A DNA stretch of 64,000 nt from Actinomycetota bacterium. GTDB lineage: Bacteria > Actinomycetota > Actinomycetes > S36-B12 > UBA10799. The translations under genes were made by a program, and so were the position numbers. The DNA lies in contig JACJWU010000003.1 of the NCBI GenBank assembly GCA_020636995.1, positions 153,108-217,107 on the forward strand, written 5' to 3'. The stretch's first letter is position 1. Every line of letters begins with the position of its first letter. Under the pieces are notes generated by a model that worked only from the letters and a program-made list of their open reading frames with translations, did not search any database and was not told the origin of the DNA. Shown one piece after another: positions 22,265 through 27,796 of the stretch.

Positions 22265-22381
22265 TTGTGACGACGTTGGCTGCGCCCGGACCCCCGTTGT
22301 CACGAAGGTGCTGGGTCCAGACCAGCCAGAGCGCCCACCTTCGTCACAATCGCGGACCGTGGGGGCGCACCTTCGTCACAA
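22265..22381. promoter_or_regulatory. Four-copy 14-nt motif array (TTGTGACGAAGGTG-like) in a divergent intergenic region
   Basis: Forward copies at 22265-22278 and 22297-22310. Reverse copies at 22336-22349 and 22368-22381. Spacing is 32 nt within each pair, and the two pairs are inverted relative to each other. Confidence 0.6.
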
Positions 22382-22418
22382 AGACGCCGCGGCGGCCGCG
22401 CGGCGCGACCCGGCCACG

Positions 22419-23159
<741 letters not shown>

Positions 23160-23166
23160 GCACGAC

Positions 23167-23703
23167 ATGAAGGGCATCATCTTCAACCTCGTCGAAGAGG
23201 TGGTCGCCAACGATCACGGGCCGGATGCGTGGGACGACATCCTCGCGGCGGCCGGCGTCGAGGGCGCCTACACCGCCGTCGGCTCCTACTCCGACGACGA
23301 ACTGCTTGCCATCGTCAGCGCCGCAGCCACCGCGACGGGCGCCTCGGAGGACGACATCCTGCGCCATGTCGGCCGCTATTCGATCCCGCCGCTGGCGCAG
23401 CGTTACCCGGAGTTCTTCACCCTGCATCGTGGCCTGCGCACATTCCTGCCGAGTTTGAACAGCGTGATCCACCCGGAGGTCCGCAAGCTGTACCCGGGCG
23501 CGCAGCCCCCTCACTTCACGATCACCGACGACGCCGACGGCGGGATCCTGATGGAGTACCACTCCCAGCGCAGCATGTGCCGTCTGGCCGAAGGGCTCAC
23601 GCTGGGTGCCGCCGATCACTACGGGGAGCCGGTGACGGTCACACACCCGCAGTGCACTCGCGAGGGTGCCTCCCACTGCCTGCTGCGGGTCGACCTGGGA
23701 TGA
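23167..23703 (+). CDS. H-NOX (haem nitric oxide/oxygen binding, HNOB) domain protein
   Basis: A 178-aa protein beginning MKGIIF. It has a proximal-His context LNSVIH(102)PEV, P114-P115 and Y131-x-S133-x-R135. Confidence 0.85.
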   Translation: MKGIIFNLVEEVVANDHGPDAWDDILAAAGVEGAYTAVGSYSDDELLAIVSAAATATGASEDDILRHVGRYSIPPLAQRYPEFFTLHRGLRTFLPSLNSVIHPEVRKLYPGAQPPHFTITDDADGGILMEYHSQRSMCRLAEGLTLGAADHYGEPVTVTHPQCTREGASHCLLRVDLG

Positions 23704-25388
23704 CCGATCACGAACTCCTCGAGGCACGGGCACAGATCGCCCGGCTCCAACGTCGCGTGGAGCGCGAGCGCGCGGCCCGGCGGGAGTCCGAAGAGGTCGC
23801 AGAAAGATCTCTGCGCAGGCTGTACGCGCGGCAGCGGGCTCTTGACCTGCTGACGCGTTCGGCGGCGGCCTCCAACTCGGCGACCGACGATCAAGCGGCC
23901 TTCACCGAGGTCATGACGATGATCGTCGAGGAGTACGAGTGGAACGTCGGTCATCTGCTGTCCCCCGCCAGGGACGATCCATCTGTACTGGTCTCAAGCG
24001 GCCTGTGGGTGGGCAGTCCACAGGACCCCTTCTTCCGCGAGGTGCGGGCGGCCACGGTTGCCGCACGCTTCGGACCGGGCGTCGGCATCCCCGGGCGGGT
24101 GATGGTGCACGGTCCGCGGTGGGAGAACCAACCCACCGACCTCATCCCGGCCCGCCAACACCTCGTCTCCCAGGGCAGCGTCTTCGCGTTCGGTGTGATG
24201 GTCGAGTCCGTCCTCGTGGGCGTACTCGAGTTCCTCAGCGCTGTCCCCAAGCCCGAGGATCCCGACCTCGTGGAACTGGCCACACCGATGGGCGAACAAC
24301 TGGGCCGGGTCATCGAACGCGCCAAGGCGCGTGAGGCCGAGCAACGACACCGGGTCGAACTCGAGCGCACCGTCAAGGAACGCACCGACGACCTGCGCAA
24401 GGCCCGCGATCGCGCCGAGGCACTGGCCCGTGCCCGCAGCGCCCTGTTCAACACGGTCACCCACGAACTGTCCACCCCGATCCATGCGGCACAGGCGGCA
24501 CTGGAGAAGCAGCCGCCGGAGGTGGTCACCGCCACCTCCCAATTGAACCTGCTGGGCAAGCGCATCGACGCGCTGATCGCTGTGGCCTCGGAGAGCGGGC
24601 AGGGGACCACCGGGAAGCCCACGGTGTGCGTGCTCGCAGACATGGTCACGGACGCCTGCGCGGCCCAGCGCGCCCTGATCACCCCCCACGGCGGATCTCT
24701 GAACCTGACCGTGGACCCGAGTGCGGCCGAAGAGGTGCTCATCGACTCGGAGCGGGTGCGAACCGCCATCGACACCCTCATGGCCGGCATCCGTCTTGCC
24801 AGGGCAAGTGCCGAGGTCGGCGTCCGTGTCCACCTCGCCGGCCACCGTGCGGTGTTGGATTTCCGGGCGCCAGGAGTGCATCCCGATCCGGGGTCGTTGG
24901 AGGTGGTTCGCAGCGCCTGCGAAGCCGCATCCGGCTCGGTGACCATGCGGGACTCCGCCATTGAACTGTCCTTCCCGGTGTCCCGACCACGTCTGCGCCG
25001 CTTCGGCACCAACCGCAGGGTGCTGCTCGTCGATGACACGAAGGTCACACAGCAACTGGCGTCGGCGATGCTCCACGACGCCGGCTACGACGTCGATGTC
25101 GCAGGCGACGGGCTGGAGGCCATTGAGCGGGTCACCGAGCAGCCCTACGGGGTCGTCCTCATGGACGTCCGCATGCCGCGACTCGACGGGCTGGAGGCCA
25201 CTCGCCGGATCCGCGGCGGAGTGGCCGGCGATGAGCGGACGGAGATCCCCATCGTGGCGATGACGGCCGACACTGGTCCGGGCGCCGCGGAGCAGTGCAT
25301 GCTTGCCGGGGTCGATGCGTATGTCCCGAAGCCGTTCACGAAAGACACCCTGTTGACCCTCGTGGCCCGGTACGTGACCCCGCAGTGA
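23700..25388 (+). CDS. Coiled-coil-GAF-DHp(HisKA)-degenerate catalytic domain-REC hybrid sensor protein
   Basis: ATGA overlap with the H-NOX stop. H-box NTVTHELSTPIH. The C-terminal REC domain carries LLVDD, LMDVRMPRLDG and VPKPF. I could not find N, G1 or G2 boxes between the DHp and REC domains. Confidence 0.85.
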   Translation: MTDHELLEARAQIARLQRRVERERAARRESEEVAERSLRRLYARQRALDLLTRSAAASNSATDDQAAFTEVMTMIVEEYEWNVGHLLSPARDDPSVLVSSGLWVGSPQDPFFREVRAATVAARFGPGVGIPGRVMVHGPRWENQPTDLIPARQHLVSQGSVFAFGVMVESVLVGVLEFLSAVPKPEDPDLVELATPMGEQLGRVIERAKAREAEQRHRVELERTVKERTDDLRKARDRAEALARARSALFNTVTHELSTPIHAAQAALEKQPPEVVTATSQLNLLGKRIDALIAVASESGQGTTGKPTVCVLADMVTDACAAQRALITPHGGSLNLTVDPSAAEEVLIDSERVRTAIDTLMAGIRLARASAEVGVRVHLAGHRAVLDFRAPGVHPDPGSLEVVRSACEAASGSVTMRDSAIELSFPVSRPRLRRFGTNRRVLLVDDTKVTQQLASAMLHDAGYDVDVAGDGLEAIERVTEQPYGVVLMDVRMPRLDGLEATRRIRGGVAGDERTEIPIVAMTADTGPGAAEQCMLAGVDAYVPKPFTKDTLLTLVARYVTPQ

Positions 25389-25390
25389 CC

Positions 25391-27796
25391 TCAGGTGCTC
25401 GCAGTGGCGTCCACCAGGAAGTCGCGCATCTGCGTCTCCACGACCTCGGCCTCGGCGGTCACGTCAGCCAGCAGAGTGTCCGTGGCATCCGTCTCCATCT
25501 GGGCGCAGATCGCACTGAGCCGCTGGGCCCCCAGCATCGCCGACGCTCCCTTCAGGGCGTGCGCGGCTGACCGCACCGCCTCCCGCGAGCCCTCGCCGTA
25601 CCCCCTGTGGATCTCCACGAGGCGTCCAGGCAACTCCTCGAGGTACACACCCACGGCATCGCGAACCAACCCCGGGTCGCCGAGGTCATCGCCGAGTTGC
25701 CACAGCACTGCTGTGTCGAGAGTGATGTCGGACGTGGACCGCGCCGCAGCCACCTGCACCGGCGCCTCCCCGGGAAGGCGCTCCAGCACCTTGGTGATTC
25801 CGATGTGCAGTTCGGCACTGGTCGTGGGCTTGAGAACGTACCCGTTGAAACCCGCCGCAGCCAGCACCGACCGATCGATCCACCCGGGATCGGCGGTCAG
25901 CGCAAGTACCGCCAGGGTGTCGACGTCGGCGAGGCGTTCGCGGATGACCTTGACCGCTTCCAGGCCATCCATCACGGGCATGTTCAAGTCGAGCAGAACG
26001 ATGTCGTACTTGTCGCGCGCGATCTCCTCCACCGCCGCCGCCCCATCACTGACCGTGTGGACCGATGCCCCCATCCTCTGCAGCATCTCGGCGATCAGTG
26101 TGCGGTTGGTGGCGTCGTCCTCCGCGAGCAGGACCGGCAGCCCGGGGGGAAGCGCGAGGGTTTCGCGTACCACGGTGACCGGCACATCGGCGCCCAACGC
26201 CTCCAGCAGCCGTTCCATCGTCCACGGCAGGGCAAGGTACTCACCGGCGGTGGGCGCCGCCGCGACAGTCACGGTGGGTCCCATGATCAGAAGCCGGTGA
26301 CCGTCCGTGACCGGCATCGTGGCCTCCGGAGCAGCGGTGTCCGTGATCACCCGTACGTGCAGGGTCTCGGATTCCCCCGTGCACTGCGCAAGGATCTCCT
26401 TGCCCATCCGCTGCAACGCCATCGAAACCGCCTCGACCGCGAGCGGGTGCCCTTCGACCGTCGCCGCGCCCGAGATCCGCATCGCGTGCGCCGGGTGCTT
26501 CTCCTGCAGGGAACCCACCGGCAACAGCACGCGGAACGCAGTGCCCTTGCCCAACTCGCTGGTCACCGTCAGCGATCCGCCGAGGGCCGTGGTCAGTCGC
26601 TGAGCGATGGCCAACCCGAGGCCGGACCCGCCGTGCTTCTTGTGGACCCCGGGACCACCCTGCACGAACATCTCGAACACCGACTTCTGGGCCTCTTCGG
26701 TCATGCCGGGGCCGGTGTCTGTCACGCGGATGTCGATCCAGGGTTTGCGCTCGAACCTCGCGGGGCGGGCCACCACAGTGACCACACCCTCGTCGGTGAA
26801 CTTGACGGCGTTGGACACGAGGTTGAGCAGGATCTGCTGGAGGCGACTGATGTCGGTGTTGATCCATCCGTCGAGGTCAGGGCTGGCGGCGCCGATGAGC
26901 GGCACCTTCTTGCGCTGGGAGATCGGACCGACCATCTGCAAGACGTCGCTAATCAGTTCGCAGATGTCCGTGTCGGACTTGTGCACCTCGAGCTTGCCGG
27001 CCTCGAACCGTGCAAGGTCGAGCAGGTTGTTCAACAGCGTCGTCAGACCGTCTGCGGAATGTTGAACGCCCACGACCAGTTCGCGGGTACGGGCATCCAG
27101 TGGACGCTGCAGCAGGAGATCGACCATTCCCACGATTCCCGAGACGGGCGTGCGGACATCATGGCTGATCGTGGCGAGCAGACTCTGACGGCCTTCCGCG
27201 AGTTGCTCTGCGTCGCTGAGCAACCCGAGTTGAAGGTCCATGGTGGACGCCGCGGTGTCGAGGTTGGATCGCCGGGCGTAGCGCAGGAGCTGACCGAGCA
27301 AGGTGGCCATCACCATCGCGATCGCATAGTGCGACCAGTTGGCGCTCGGGATGTGGAGCATGGCGAGCACCCACGAGACCCACATGACAGCGGTGATCGC
27401 CACGTTCCAACCGGTCCGCAGGATCGCCATGCCTGCGCCGATGACGATCAGCATGAAGTTCGTCGTCTGCCACTCCTCCTGGCTCAGGTAGAGGTGCAGT
27501 GCGGAGTTCGCGATGAGGACCAGGAACACAGCGACGAGCACCAACGTGCCGTTCTCGGTGATCGTCTTGCGCCGCGCAGCCCACGCCACCGCCAGCAGCA
27601 GCACCGCGCTCACCGCGGCGACGGCGGACATGATCATGCCTTCCTCGCCGCCGACCAGCACCGGGTGCAGCAGCGCGAGCAACGCGAACAGCAGCCCGAG
27701 GAACAACCCGGCCGGGTACACGGTGCGCGCAGCCGCAGCGTCGTAGCGGACCTGCGGATCCGGGGAGAGCTCGGGTGGTATCCGGATCACTGCCAT
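25391..27796 (-). CDS. Tripartite hybrid sensor histidine kinase (multi-TM sensor-HisKA-HATPase-REC-HPt)
   Basis: SHDVRTPV H-box, NLVSNAVKFT, DTGPGM and GGSGLGLAIAQ. REC domain (LLAEDD, LLDLNMPVMDG). HPt motif HALKGASAMLGA. The N-terminus has about 6 hydrophobic helices. Confidence 0.9.
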   Translation of the reverse strand: MAVIRIPPELSPDPQVRYDAAAARTVYPAGLFLGLLFALLALLHPVLVGGEEGMIMSAVAAVSAVLLLAVAWAARRKTITENGTLVLVAVFLVLIANSALHLYLSQEEWQTTNFMLIVIGAGMAILRTGWNVAITAVMWVSWVLAMLHIPSANWSHYAIAMVMATLLGQLLRYARRSNLDTAASTMDLQLGLLSDAEQLAEGRQSLLATISHDVRTPVSGIVGMVDLLLQRPLDARTRELVVGVQHSADGLTTLLNNLLDLARFEAGKLEVHKSDTDICELISDVLQMVGPISQRKKVPLIGAASPDLDGWINTDISRLQQILLNLVSNAVKFTDEGVVTVVARPARFERKPWIDIRVTDTGPGMTEEAQKSVFEMFVQGGPGVHKKHGGSGLGLAIAQRLTTALGGSLTVTSELGKGTAFRVLLPVGSLQEKHPAHAMRISGAATVEGHPLAVEAVSMALQRMGKEILAQCTGESETLHVRVITDTAAPEATMPVTDGHRLLIMGPTVTVAAAPTAGEYLALPWTMERLLEALGADVPVTVVRETLALPPGLPVLLAEDDATNRTLIAEMLQRMGASVHTVSDGAAAVEEIARDKYDIVLLDLNMPVMDGLEAVKVIRERLADVDTLAVLALTADPGWIDRSVLAAAGFNGYVLKPTTSAELHIGITKVLERLPGEAPVQVAAARSTSDITLDTAVLWQLGDDLGDPGLVRDAVGVYLEELPGRLVEIHRGYGEGSREAVRSAAHALKGASAMLGAQRLSAICAQMETDATDTLLADVTAEAEVVETQMRDFLVDATAST

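Follow-up and report, generated by a model that had tools for sequence, protein, structure and literature searches.

The window, that is, the whole 64,000-nucleotide stretch of actinobacterial DNA analysed here, carries an operon whose first gene, recognized from its open reading frame and translation (22419–23159, forward strand), encodes an OmpR-family response regulator with a receiver and a winged-helix domain, the probable terminal output of the relay discussed below. It is followed on the same strand by the gene for a 178-residue H-NOX haem NO-binding sensor (23167–23703; Pfam HNOB, PF07700, E = 6.1e-43, 147 bits), the sole H-NOX in the genome. The TGA stop of the H-NOX gene overlaps the ATG of the next one (ATGA), which runs from 23700 to 25388 on the forward strand and encodes a predicted kinase-dead hybrid histidine kinase (pseudo-HK) of 562 residues, made up of a helix, a GAF-like domain, a DHp, a degenerate CA domain (pseudo-CA) and a receiver. 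Convergent to it, at 25391–27796 on the reverse strand, lies the gene for a membrane-bound unorthodox kinase of 801 residues with the domain order HisKA, HATPase_c, REC, HPt.

Aligned to Shewanella oneidensis H-NOX (2kii/4u99; E = 1e-26), the H-NOX has its Cys/His positions in register. The His of its SVIH falls on So His103, the proximal His, and its YHSQR aligns with YSSPR (the YxSxR motif), as expected of a member of the H-NOX family. Within the genus, the H-NOX and pseudo-HK genes are inherited together: all ten genomes that have one have the other, and both are absent from the remaining four (14 genomes). An HNOB gene also stands directly upstream in 9 of 10 relatives that were looked up; in the tenth (P0134) the contig ends within the upstream gene, for which there is no Pfam record. 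The pseudo-HK thus shows both the adjacency to an H-NOX and the co-inheritance with it that mark an H-NOX-associated kinase, and it is probably the cognate partner of this sensor, a point that forms part of the overall explanation we favor.

The N-terminal long helix (residues 1–60, at 23700–23879; residues 3–60 are helical in the AF2 model) is the most conserved part of the pseudo-HK, with 15 invariant residues between R15 and Q45 and a dN/dS of 0.05. Residues 61–205 (23880–24314) form a GAF-like domain. The first-pass annotation of this DNA, made from the letters alone, had placed a GAF domain ahead of the DHp. AF2 models the fold with pLDDT above 90, and GAF_2 scores above the cut-off in relatives P0129, P0134 and P0140, but the match in the pseudo-HK itself is weak (residues 113–206, E = 0.046) and falls below the Pfam cut-off. 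The full-length AF2 model matches bacteriophytochrome GAF-HK structures.

The HisKA-type DHp hairpin (residues 241–300, 24420–24599) was assigned from a profile match and from invariance. Pfam gives a weak HisKA match (residues 245–269, E = 0.017), and the DHp profile matches HK853, CusS and AHK4. His255 (codon 24462–24464) lies within TVTHELSTPIHAA and in the H box HELSTP, which is at the same time an HExxT phosphatase motif; the longer string THELSTPIH covers residues 254–262 (24459–24485). Across 21 of 21 family members H255, L257, T259 and P260 are invariant and position 256 is E or D, and HxxxTP is kept in 14 of 15 relatives with a degenerate CA domain. The receiver (residues 438–556, 25011–25367) was matched by Pfam hmmscan (E ≤ 10) to Response_reg at residues 441–555 (5.5e-25, 88 bits). 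Its phospho-acceptor Asp489 (25164–25166) sits in LMDVRMP (residues 487–493, 25158–25178), and its D445, D446, D489, T522 and K544, the residues expected of a REC domain, are invariant in 21 family members down to 42% identity. Its best PDB matches are hybrid-kinase receivers (PA1611, AHK4/5, GacS D1). The first reading of the sequence was therefore right that an H box and a complete receiver are present, since the quoted strings were located in the frame and the active-site residues are invariant. It put the distance between the H box and the receiver at about 170 residues, whereas His255 and the receiver DD pair are about 190 residues apart.

Residues 305–430 (24612–24989) were assigned to a degenerate CA domain (pseudo-ATPase) by hhalign, MAFFT, AF2 and Foldseek. 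Because PDB searches with the full-length protein were dominated by the receiver, residues 228–436 were cut out for the profile, a second AF2 run and a second Foldseek search. Profile matches of this segment to AHK4, CusS and HK853 ranged from 1e-7 to 1e-4, hhalign against DHp-CA gave a probability of 99.7% (E = 1e-25) with a 25-column gap, and Foldseek matched the core to the DHp-CA of HK853, HprS, CusS, SrrB and WalK (E about 1e-9, probability 1.0). Since the profile alignment to DHp-CA is significant, residues 305–430 are a true CA homologue.

What is missing from this domain is the ATP site. A motif scan of residues 256–440 found no NxxxN, no DxGxG and no GxG[LIVM]G, and only 3 Asn; Pfam hmmscan of the protein at E ≤ 10 returned no HATPase_c family; and the whole genome, searched in six frames for HATPase_c, has 22 sites, including the neighboring kinase, none of them within the pseudo-HK gene. 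These results bear out the earlier remark that no N box, G1 or G2 can be recognized here, for which it had quoted two stretches, VRTAIDTLMAGIRLA (residues 353–367) and VLDFRAPGVHPDPG (residues 385–398), both found in the frame as quoted. In the MAFFT and hhalign alignments the N-box Asn of the neighboring kinase and of the intact relatives falls on Ala362/Gly363. The G1 box DxGxG, which reads DTGPG in the neighboring kinase, is replaced by RAPGV. A 25-residue deletion takes away the F box, the ATP lid and the G2 box, where the neighbor has KSVFEMFVQGGPGVHKKHGGSGLG. Measured against a competent HisKA-class kinase, the pseudo-HK has the DHp His and lacks the N box, G1, F box, lid and G2. A profile alignment against HATPase_c and a structure prediction had both been proposed as checks; the first gave significant CA homology with the ATP-site motifs missing, and in the second the AF2 model of the pseudo-CA keeps the alpha/beta sandwich (Bergerat fold, pLDDT 81–93) and has a 7-residue loop (390–396) where the lid is expected. 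The suggestion in the first-pass annotation that the protein probably cannot autophosphorylate is thus supported by the substitutions of the Asn and of the G1 Asp and Gly, by the 25-column gap and by the predicted loss of the lid. We think that the pseudo-HK probably descends from a genuine H-NOX-associated hybrid kinase whose CA domain decayed to a structural remnant; a protein with such a remnant would not autophosphorylate via a canonical ATP site.

It could be argued that the pseudo-HK is a kinase all the same, either through unconventional ATP binding or because His255 receives its phosphoryl group in trans from another kinase's CA domain. We know of no established mechanism by which one kinase trans-phosphorylates a foreign DHp. 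The intact H box and the confidently modelled CA sandwich would suit this idea, but the Mg-coordinating Asn, the adenine-binding Asp, both Gly-rich boxes and the entire lid are missing in all 12 clade members, and RetS, which lacks just the G boxes, already fails to autophosphorylate (PMC5992135). We regard continued kinase activity as very improbable.

The CA states of the relatives were taken from Pfam and alignment; a regex motif scan was not used across the family, as it gave false positives in the receiver. A full-length alignment search of the genome contigs was also set aside, as its 80 loci were unrelated hybrid kinases and regulators with patterns mainly from the receiver (VLMD[IL]RMP). 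When the CA columns are left out of the tree, two to three independent origins of the degenerate CA state are required, and close relatives with an intact CA domain are also H-NOX-linked. As far as sequence comparison goes, kinase activity is dispensable in this family. The relatives grade from forms with an intact CA domain to forms without a lid, and offer material for the study of how pseudo-kinases originate.

A further reading is that the gene is a decaying remnant without function. Two observations point that way: in G001 and G008 the gene is broken over two frames, and the pseudo-CA evolves fastest among the domains (dN/dS about 0.28, in a range of 0.15–0.28 over all domains; the values are approximate because dS is near saturation, at about 1.0–1.3). 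MFS, H-NOX and hybrid-kinase genes are broken in those same MAGs too, so the frame breaks point to assembly errors. Against decay, 7 genomes of the genus and dozens of metagenomic clusters, with identities as low as 42%, have an unbroken reading frame; dN/dS is far below 1 in every domain; and the gene is present in RNA-library assemblies. At the level of codon sequence the pseudo-CA is under purifying selection. We therefore reject the pseudogene reading, given that the same assemblies break other genes and that there are seven intact orthologues with low dN/dS, and we consider loss of function scarcely credible. The sequence is not an assembly artefact either, since at least 20 independent metagenomes from sludge, wastewater and freshwater contained 100% of the 31-mers sampled from it. 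The exact pseudo-HK sequence also occurs in metatranscriptome assemblies, whose contigs come from RNA libraries in which DNA carry-over is possible.

In the neighboring kinase Pfam recognizes HATPase_c (8.5e-27), HisKA (3.3e-15), Response_reg (2.9e-22) and Hpt (2.5e-13). The genome has a single HPt domain, the one that this kinase carries at 25445–25654 in the window, and the kinase is presumed to supply the phosphoryl groups at this locus. Synteny of the kinase gene extends to 8 genomes of the genus and that of the OmpR-family regulator gene to 9 (84–93% identity), and gene order is conserved throughout the genus for the four-gene module of OmpR regulator, H-NOX, pseudo-kinase and hybrid HK-HPt. 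Other lineages have these components too, in the form of an OmpR regulator with either a lone HPt or a hybrid HK-HPt. The intact relatives P0127 and P0145 have the layout H-NOX, hybrid HK, lone HPt, and OmpR-type regulator genes (Response_reg plus Trans_reg_C) also flank P0126, P0134 and P0141. Within the sequenced flanks of five degenerate relatives (G047, G055, P0140, P0125, P0129) there is neither a second kinase nor an HPt, so the neighboring kinase is not an obligatory genomic companion. We also considered whether the second kinase compensates for the loss of the CA domain and rejected the idea, as the intact relative P0141 likewise has a hybrid HK-HPt next door.

The closest functional parallel that we can draw is to RetS of Pseudomonas aeruginosa, an experimentally characterized kinase-dead hybrid sensor with a degenerate HATPase that lacks the G boxes and a retained HExxT (PMC5992135). 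Both proteins are hybrids with a HisKA DHp bearing HExxT, a degenerate HATPase and a receiver. The features by which PMC5992135 defines the RetS-like functional class, which is not a sequence family, are all present in the pseudo-HK: a degenerate HATPase, HExxT and a receiver Asp. The neighboring kinase, moreover, shares its HisKA, HATPase_c, REC, HPt layout with GacS, the RetS target. The two proteins have no sequence relationship beyond the general kinase superfamily, and they differ in several ways. RetS is a gammaproteobacterial membrane protein with a periplasmic sensor domain, two receivers and no H-NOX partner, whereas the pseudo-HK is cytoplasmic, combines a single receiver with an N-terminal helix and a GAF-like domain, and has its translation coupled to that of an H-NOX. 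Its losses go beyond the G boxes to the N-box Asn and the entire lid.

Our analysis suggests that the pseudo-HK is best read as a RetS-like, H-NOX-gated phosphatase or phosphate sink, possibly a relay; we put the probability of this explanation as a whole, including its descent from an H-NOX-associated kinase and its partnership with the H-NOX, at roughly 0.6. Since the ATP pocket is lost while the His, the phosphatase motif and the receiver are kept, the protein most likely drains or relays the neighbor's phosphate rather than making it. The first-pass annotation had proposed a phosphatase or a phosphotransfer hub fed by the neighbor, and this is consistent with the invariant receiver, the HExxT motif, the sole HPt and the synteny. 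A scheme modelled on RetS/GacS and on HqsK in its phosphatase mode would have the neighboring unorthodox kinase generate phosphoryl groups and pass them through the genome's only HPt to the OmpR-type regulator. The pseudo-kinase would act as a drain: phosphoryl groups on the HPt or on the kinase would move to its receiver, and its DHp would dephosphorylate receiver domains. The haem state of the H-NOX (NO-bound or not) would alter the strength of that drain, and translational coupling would keep the H-NOX in a fixed ratio with the pseudo-kinase. With drain strength set by the H-NOX, it is the removal of phosphate, not its input, that NO would gate to set relay output. In this scheme gene neighborhood is the sole basis for inferring which way phosphate flows and which partners take part, and the sign of the NO effect is likewise an inferred element.

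A protein that regulates without phosphoryl chemistry of its own would also fit part of these data. Such a non-phosphoryl allosteric regulator would bind the neighboring kinase, for example as a DHp heterodimer, and inhibit or promote its autophosphorylation depending on the state of the H-NOX. In DivL of Caulobacter a kinase scaffold has likewise been repurposed for regulation without autokinase activity; DivL has a Tyr in place of the phospho-His and keeps its CA domain, whereas the pseudo-HK still has the His but no longer an ATP site. The DivL DHp-CA (4q20) is among the fold matches, and the purifying selection on the pseudo-CA is what a docking surface would be expected to show. DivL is a pseudo-kinase repurposed to sense the state of a regulator (PMC4211667), and RetS, too, inhibits GacS autophosphorylation directly (PMC5992135), which is its "mechanism 3". 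The invariance of His255, E/D256, T259, P260 and the five receiver residues is hard to explain without phosphoryl chemistry, however, and several relatives have no second kinase nearby. We judge purely allosteric action to be improbable.

The same invariance raises a different alternative, a forward relay of the Spo0B, ChpT or PhyT type, in which Asp489, phosphorylated by the neighbor's HPt or by another kinase, would pass its phosphoryl group to His255 and on to the OmpR-type regulator, so that the H-NOX gates a positive step. A pure receiver-based sink does not need an invariant His255, and the conservation of this residue and of the whole H box, in spite of the lost kinase function, fits a His-dependent relay at least as well. 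The OmpR regulator lies directly upstream in the same operon. Kinases with degenerate CA domains are known as phosphotransferases (ChpT, PMC3433190; PhyT, PMC5898713, which cites Spo0B and ChpT as precedents), and PhyK and LovK act as phosphotransferases without needing an ATP site of their own (PMC5964349). Like the pseudo-HK, Spo0B, ChpT and PhyT (PhyP) have a DHp-like His domain and a CA-like domain without ATP binding (PMC3433190; PMC5898713; PMC5964349). They shuttle phosphoryl groups between receivers and have no fused receiver, GAF or H-NOX, and the pseudo-HK, unlike them, keeps the phosphatase Thr. This Thr259 of HExxT is the phosphatase determinant, and phosphotransfer does not need it. 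The neighboring kinase, moreover, already has a complete H1-D1-H2 chain that could serve the regulator directly, and an additional D-H pair would make the relay unusually long. Pfam at E ≤ 10 gave no match of the pseudo-HK to the ChpT C-terminal family (PF10090) or to the Spo0B families; two intact relatives had sub-threshold PF10090 matches. We consider a forward relay unlikely, though it is the alternative to take most seriously.

To our knowledge, H-NOX signaling has been characterized only in Proteobacteria, with active kinases or c-di-GMP enzymes as partners, and the characterized H-NOX-associated kinases are all active. As with the pseudo-HK, the genes of such kinases (HnoK/HahK, HqsK) adjoin an H-NOX gene of the Shewanella/Vibrio type. 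A literature search for H-NOX with pseudokinases and for H-NOX with Actinobacteria found no description of an H-NOX system of either kind, and a 2022 review states that there had been no report on any Gram-positive H-NOX (PMC8738867). In HqsK, a hybrid of Vibrio harveyi and V. parahaemolyticus that feeds a separate HPt protein, LuxU, H-NOX/NO switches between kinase and phosphatase modes (PMC8738867). The gene layout of the intact relatives P0127 and P0145 is exactly that of the HqsK type; with no ATP site, only the phosphatase or transfer half of that cycle can remain in the pseudo-HK. The first-pass annotation had called this an unusual point of control for an H-NOX. It is less unprecedented than this implied, given the kinase-dead hybrid RetS and the kinase/phosphatase switch of HqsK.

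The CA domain decayed at least two to three times in this family while the His/HExxT and the receiver stayed invariant, and so the NO-gated activity under selection would be the reverse reaction. If that reading of the drain is true, the series P0127/P0128, P0145/G045, G054 and the target clade would be a natural record of a kinase becoming a dedicated phosphatase or transferase. We would suggest, more tentatively than for the locus itself, that in this actinobacterial family the regulated output of the H-NOX may not be a kinase at all; it may be an NO-gated drain or His-Asp shuttle in a relay powered by another kinase. If true, this would be the first worked-out H-NOX signaling logic in a Gram-positive lineage. 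The system is compact and abundant in activated sludge and wastewater, its H-NOX partner has no ATP site yet keeps all the residues that phosphatase and phosphotransfer chemistry requires, and the locus lets one ask whether an H-NOX can control signaling solely by gating phosphate removal.

In the databases the pseudo-HK is annotated as "response regulator" only. In public annotation that label extends to the whole family, where it masks the kinase-like core.

The pseudo-kinase gene (23700-25388, plus strand; 562 aa), annotated in databases merely as 'response regulator', belongs to a series that starts with an OmpR-type response regulator (22419-23159, plus strand) and continues with an H-NOX gene (23167-23703, plus strand; Pfam HNOB, E 6e-43), whose stop codon overlaps the pseudo-kinase ATG (ATGA). 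A membrane-bound unorthodox kinase (25391-27796, minus strand) converges on it, and each of its four domains (HisKA, HATPase_c, REC, Hpt) scores above the Pfam cut-off. The two stop codons are 2 nt apart (25388 and 25391), and 25386-25393 leaves no space for terminators. In the assembly (91.5% complete) H-NOX and Hpt each occur just once, the Hpt domain forming the C-terminal end of the neighbouring kinase, so a hybrid-type receiver has a single HPt partner in this cell. No HPt-type (PF01627) phosphorelay element was detected in the assembly outside this locus.

The first-pass annotation described an intact H box and receiver flanking a degenerate ATP-binding domain, and the four peptide strings that it quoted lie in the ORF where it placed them. 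Its account of missing N, G1 and G2 boxes held as well: from His255 to the receiver there is no NxxxN, DxGxG or GxGLG pattern, and there are three Asn only. It had allowed for an overlooked HATPase_c match with conserved boxes, and none was found by Pfam, profile alignment or structure model. At E<=10, Pfam reported matches to four families, none of them from the HATPase clan. These were Response_reg at residues 441-555 (E 5.5e-25), a fragment of HisKA at residues 245-269 (E 0.017), GAF_2 at a weak E 0.046, and a spurious low-complexity match. NCBIfam matched the receiver only. When the whole assembly was searched in six frames for HATPase_c, 22 sites came up (versus the one Hpt), including the neighbouring kinase, with none inside the target gene.

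Nevertheless, what separates the DHp from the receiver is a true CA domain that has been gutted. A profile built on residues 228-436 of 17 family members matched DHp-CA cores in the PDB (AHK4, 1e-7; CusS, 4e-5; HK853, 8e-5), and profile-profile comparison with eight canonical relatives gave 99.7% probability (E 1e-25, 200 columns). AlphaFold2 confidently predicted the usual alpha/beta sandwich; pLDDT for this region was 81-93 when the full-length protein was modelled and above 89 for the sub-domain alone. Foldseek retrieved the DHp-CA structures of HK853, HprS, CusS, SrrB, WalK and DivL (E about 1e-9, probability 1.0). These profile, profile-profile and fold matches rule out that the interval is a mere linker. 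In the alignments, the N box LVSNAVKF of the neighbouring kinase corresponds to LMAGIRLA, placing Ala362/Gly363 at the Mg/ATP-binding Asn, and G1 (TDTGPG) corresponds to FRAPGV. The alignments agree on a 25-residue gap that takes out the F box, ATP lid and G2 box, where the model shows a 7-residue loop (390-396). We are highly confident that the protein has no canonical ATP site, much more so than in any mechanistic reading, and we consider residual kinase activity very improbable.

Across 21 full-length relatives (42-100% identity, 557-590 aa), the H-box residues H255, L257, T259 and P260 were invariant and position 256 was always E or D, a pattern equal to the HExxT transmitter-phosphatase motif. 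The invariance of His255 keeps in play a forward relay of the Spo0B/ChpT/PhyT type through this residue (PMC3433190; PMC5898713; PMC5964349), which we rank second and consider rather unlikely. Receiver residues D445, D446, D489, T522 and K544 were likewise invariant; a phosphoryl-independent, allosteric role for the protein appears unlikely.

Pairwise Nei-Gojobori dN/dS among seven intact orthologues of the genus, approximate values given that dS was about 1.0-1.3, was 0.05 for the N-terminal helix, 0.15 for the receiver, 0.20 for the DHp, 0.22 for the GAF domain and 0.28 for the pseudo-CA. By these values the pseudo-CA remnant is relaxed, yet clearly under purifying selection, and we give scarcely any weight to the idea that the gene is decaying. 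H-NOX and pseudo-kinase were both present in 10 genus assemblies and both absent in 4, and the gene order from OmpR regulator to convergent hybrid HK-HPt was kept wherever the contig extends far enough. Simultaneous frame breaks in MFS, H-NOX, pseudo-kinase and hybrid kinase genes (loci L094, L096, L099 and L100 of genomes G004, G009, G001 and G008) are typical of assembly indel errors rather than pseudogenes, since neighbouring genes are broken too.

The N-terminal helix (residues 1-60, 23700-23879; RLQRRVERERAARRESEEVAERSLRRLYARQRALDLL) is the best-conserved part of the protein, with 15 invariant residues and no Pfam model. Together with the GAF domain (about residues 10-215) it turns up in hundreds of proteins that otherwise differ: in a profile search, 381 cluster representatives fell below 1e-30. 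It could be where H-NOX docks, or a signalling module of general use.

With residues 1-436 as a profile we searched 1.8 billion cluster representatives and scanned the closest matches with Pfam. The nearest relatives form two groups: one (P0124, P0125, P0126, P0129, P0134, P0140 and P0180; 563-586 aa) has no HATPase_c, and a slightly longer one (P0127, P0128, P0141, P0145, P0136 and others; most 596-633 aa) has a genuine GAF-HisKA-HATPase_c-REC architecture. Of ten relatives from these groups whose neighbourhoods were inspected, nine have an HNOB gene directly upstream, usually overlapping, whether the CA is intact or degenerate; in P0134 the contig end truncates the upstream gene, for which there is no Pfam record. 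Companions include a lone HPt (113-123 aa) converging on the kinase (P0127, P0145, genome G054), a hybrid HK-HPt fusion (the target's genus, P0124, P0134, P0141) and an OmpR regulator (the target's genus, P0126, P0134, P0141). Given the HNOB linkage and recurrent HPt companions, the ancestor was a genuine H-NOX-associated hybrid kinase that worked with an HPt, as HqsK does with LuxU in Vibrio.

The most interesting element is that the ATP site was lost recurrently in this H-NOX-linked family. On a maximum-likelihood tree built with the CA columns left out, degenerate forms comprise a 12-member clade including the target, the P0134/P0140 pair and G054, nested among intact forms. Parsimony gives three state changes, and well-supported branches force at least two. 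The alignment shows intermediates in CA decay: in P0145 and G045 the N box and G1 survive but 13 residues, the F box among them, are missing; G054 is equally long but its motifs have decayed; and the target clade has the complete 25-27-residue deletion. The H boxes of G045 (L102) and P0145 (L120) read HEARSA/HEAHAS, without the Thr-Pro of HExxTP. No H-NOX was found anywhere in the G045 genome (99% complete), whereas in P0145, a close relative, one lies upstream.

G054, a relative from the same taxonomic order, has a single cluster (L104; contig C69, 6730-13067) that comprises an OmpR regulator, a divergent additional H-NOX (28% identity), a hybrid kinase of PAS type (803 aa) whose N-terminal 150 aa have no domain assignment, another H-NOX, the pseudo-kinase whose motifs have decayed, and a 121-aa HPt standing alone. 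This cluster places two H-NOX sensors in one relay.

Kinase-dead kinases that act as phosphatases or transferases are already known. To our knowledge, H-NOX-associated kinases have been active ones, in Proteobacteria only. Our literature searches on H-NOX with pseudokinases or Actinobacteria yielded no description of such a partner, and a 2022 review noted no reports on Gram-positive H-NOX (PMC8738867). RetS of Pseudomonas aeruginosa, which has the same anatomy as the target, has been dissected experimentally; it attenuates GacS in two ways, its receiver Asp taking phosphoryl groups and Thr428 dephosphorylating the GacS receiver (PMC5992135). The neighbouring kinase matches the GacS layout, and H-NOX is known to make the hybrid HqsK act either as kinase or as phosphatase on a shared HPt (PMC8738867). 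Because of these three parallels, we rank first, with a probability of about 0.6 that includes uncertainty over the partner, a role as phosphate sink or phosphatase. H-NOX would gate this activity, which would act upon the neighbouring kinase's relay to the OmpR regulator.

The H-NOX itself appears to be functional: it can be aligned over its whole length with Shewanella oneidensis H-NOX (2kii/4u99, E 1e-26), and the alignment takes in the proximal His, YxSxR and, towards the C-terminus, the Cys/His positions (SMC..., THPQC..., SHC). A sub-threshold Pfam V4R match covers the C-terminal part with these positions. Since they are kept, and the corresponding zinc site of Vibrio cholerae H-NOX is a haem-independent oxidant sensor (PMC8738867), the input could be redox besides NO.

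Every 31-mer sampled from 22300-25500 was present in 20 or more independent metagenomes (activated sludge, wastewater, biofilm, freshwater) from at least 12 studies (2014-2025), so the sequence is real. RNA-library assemblies from wastewater and sludge hold the region without a single difference, which suggests expression, with DNA carry-over possible. Contigs in X27 (23629-25873) and X32 span the H-NOX/target junction. The X27 contig and one in X25 (23169-27455) run across the convergent gene ends, suggesting that the antisense 3' ends overlap or that DNA was carried over. The source organism is evidently common in NO-rich communities that remove nitrogen, and one cluster member carries the NCBI label Candidatus Nanopelagicales bacterium.
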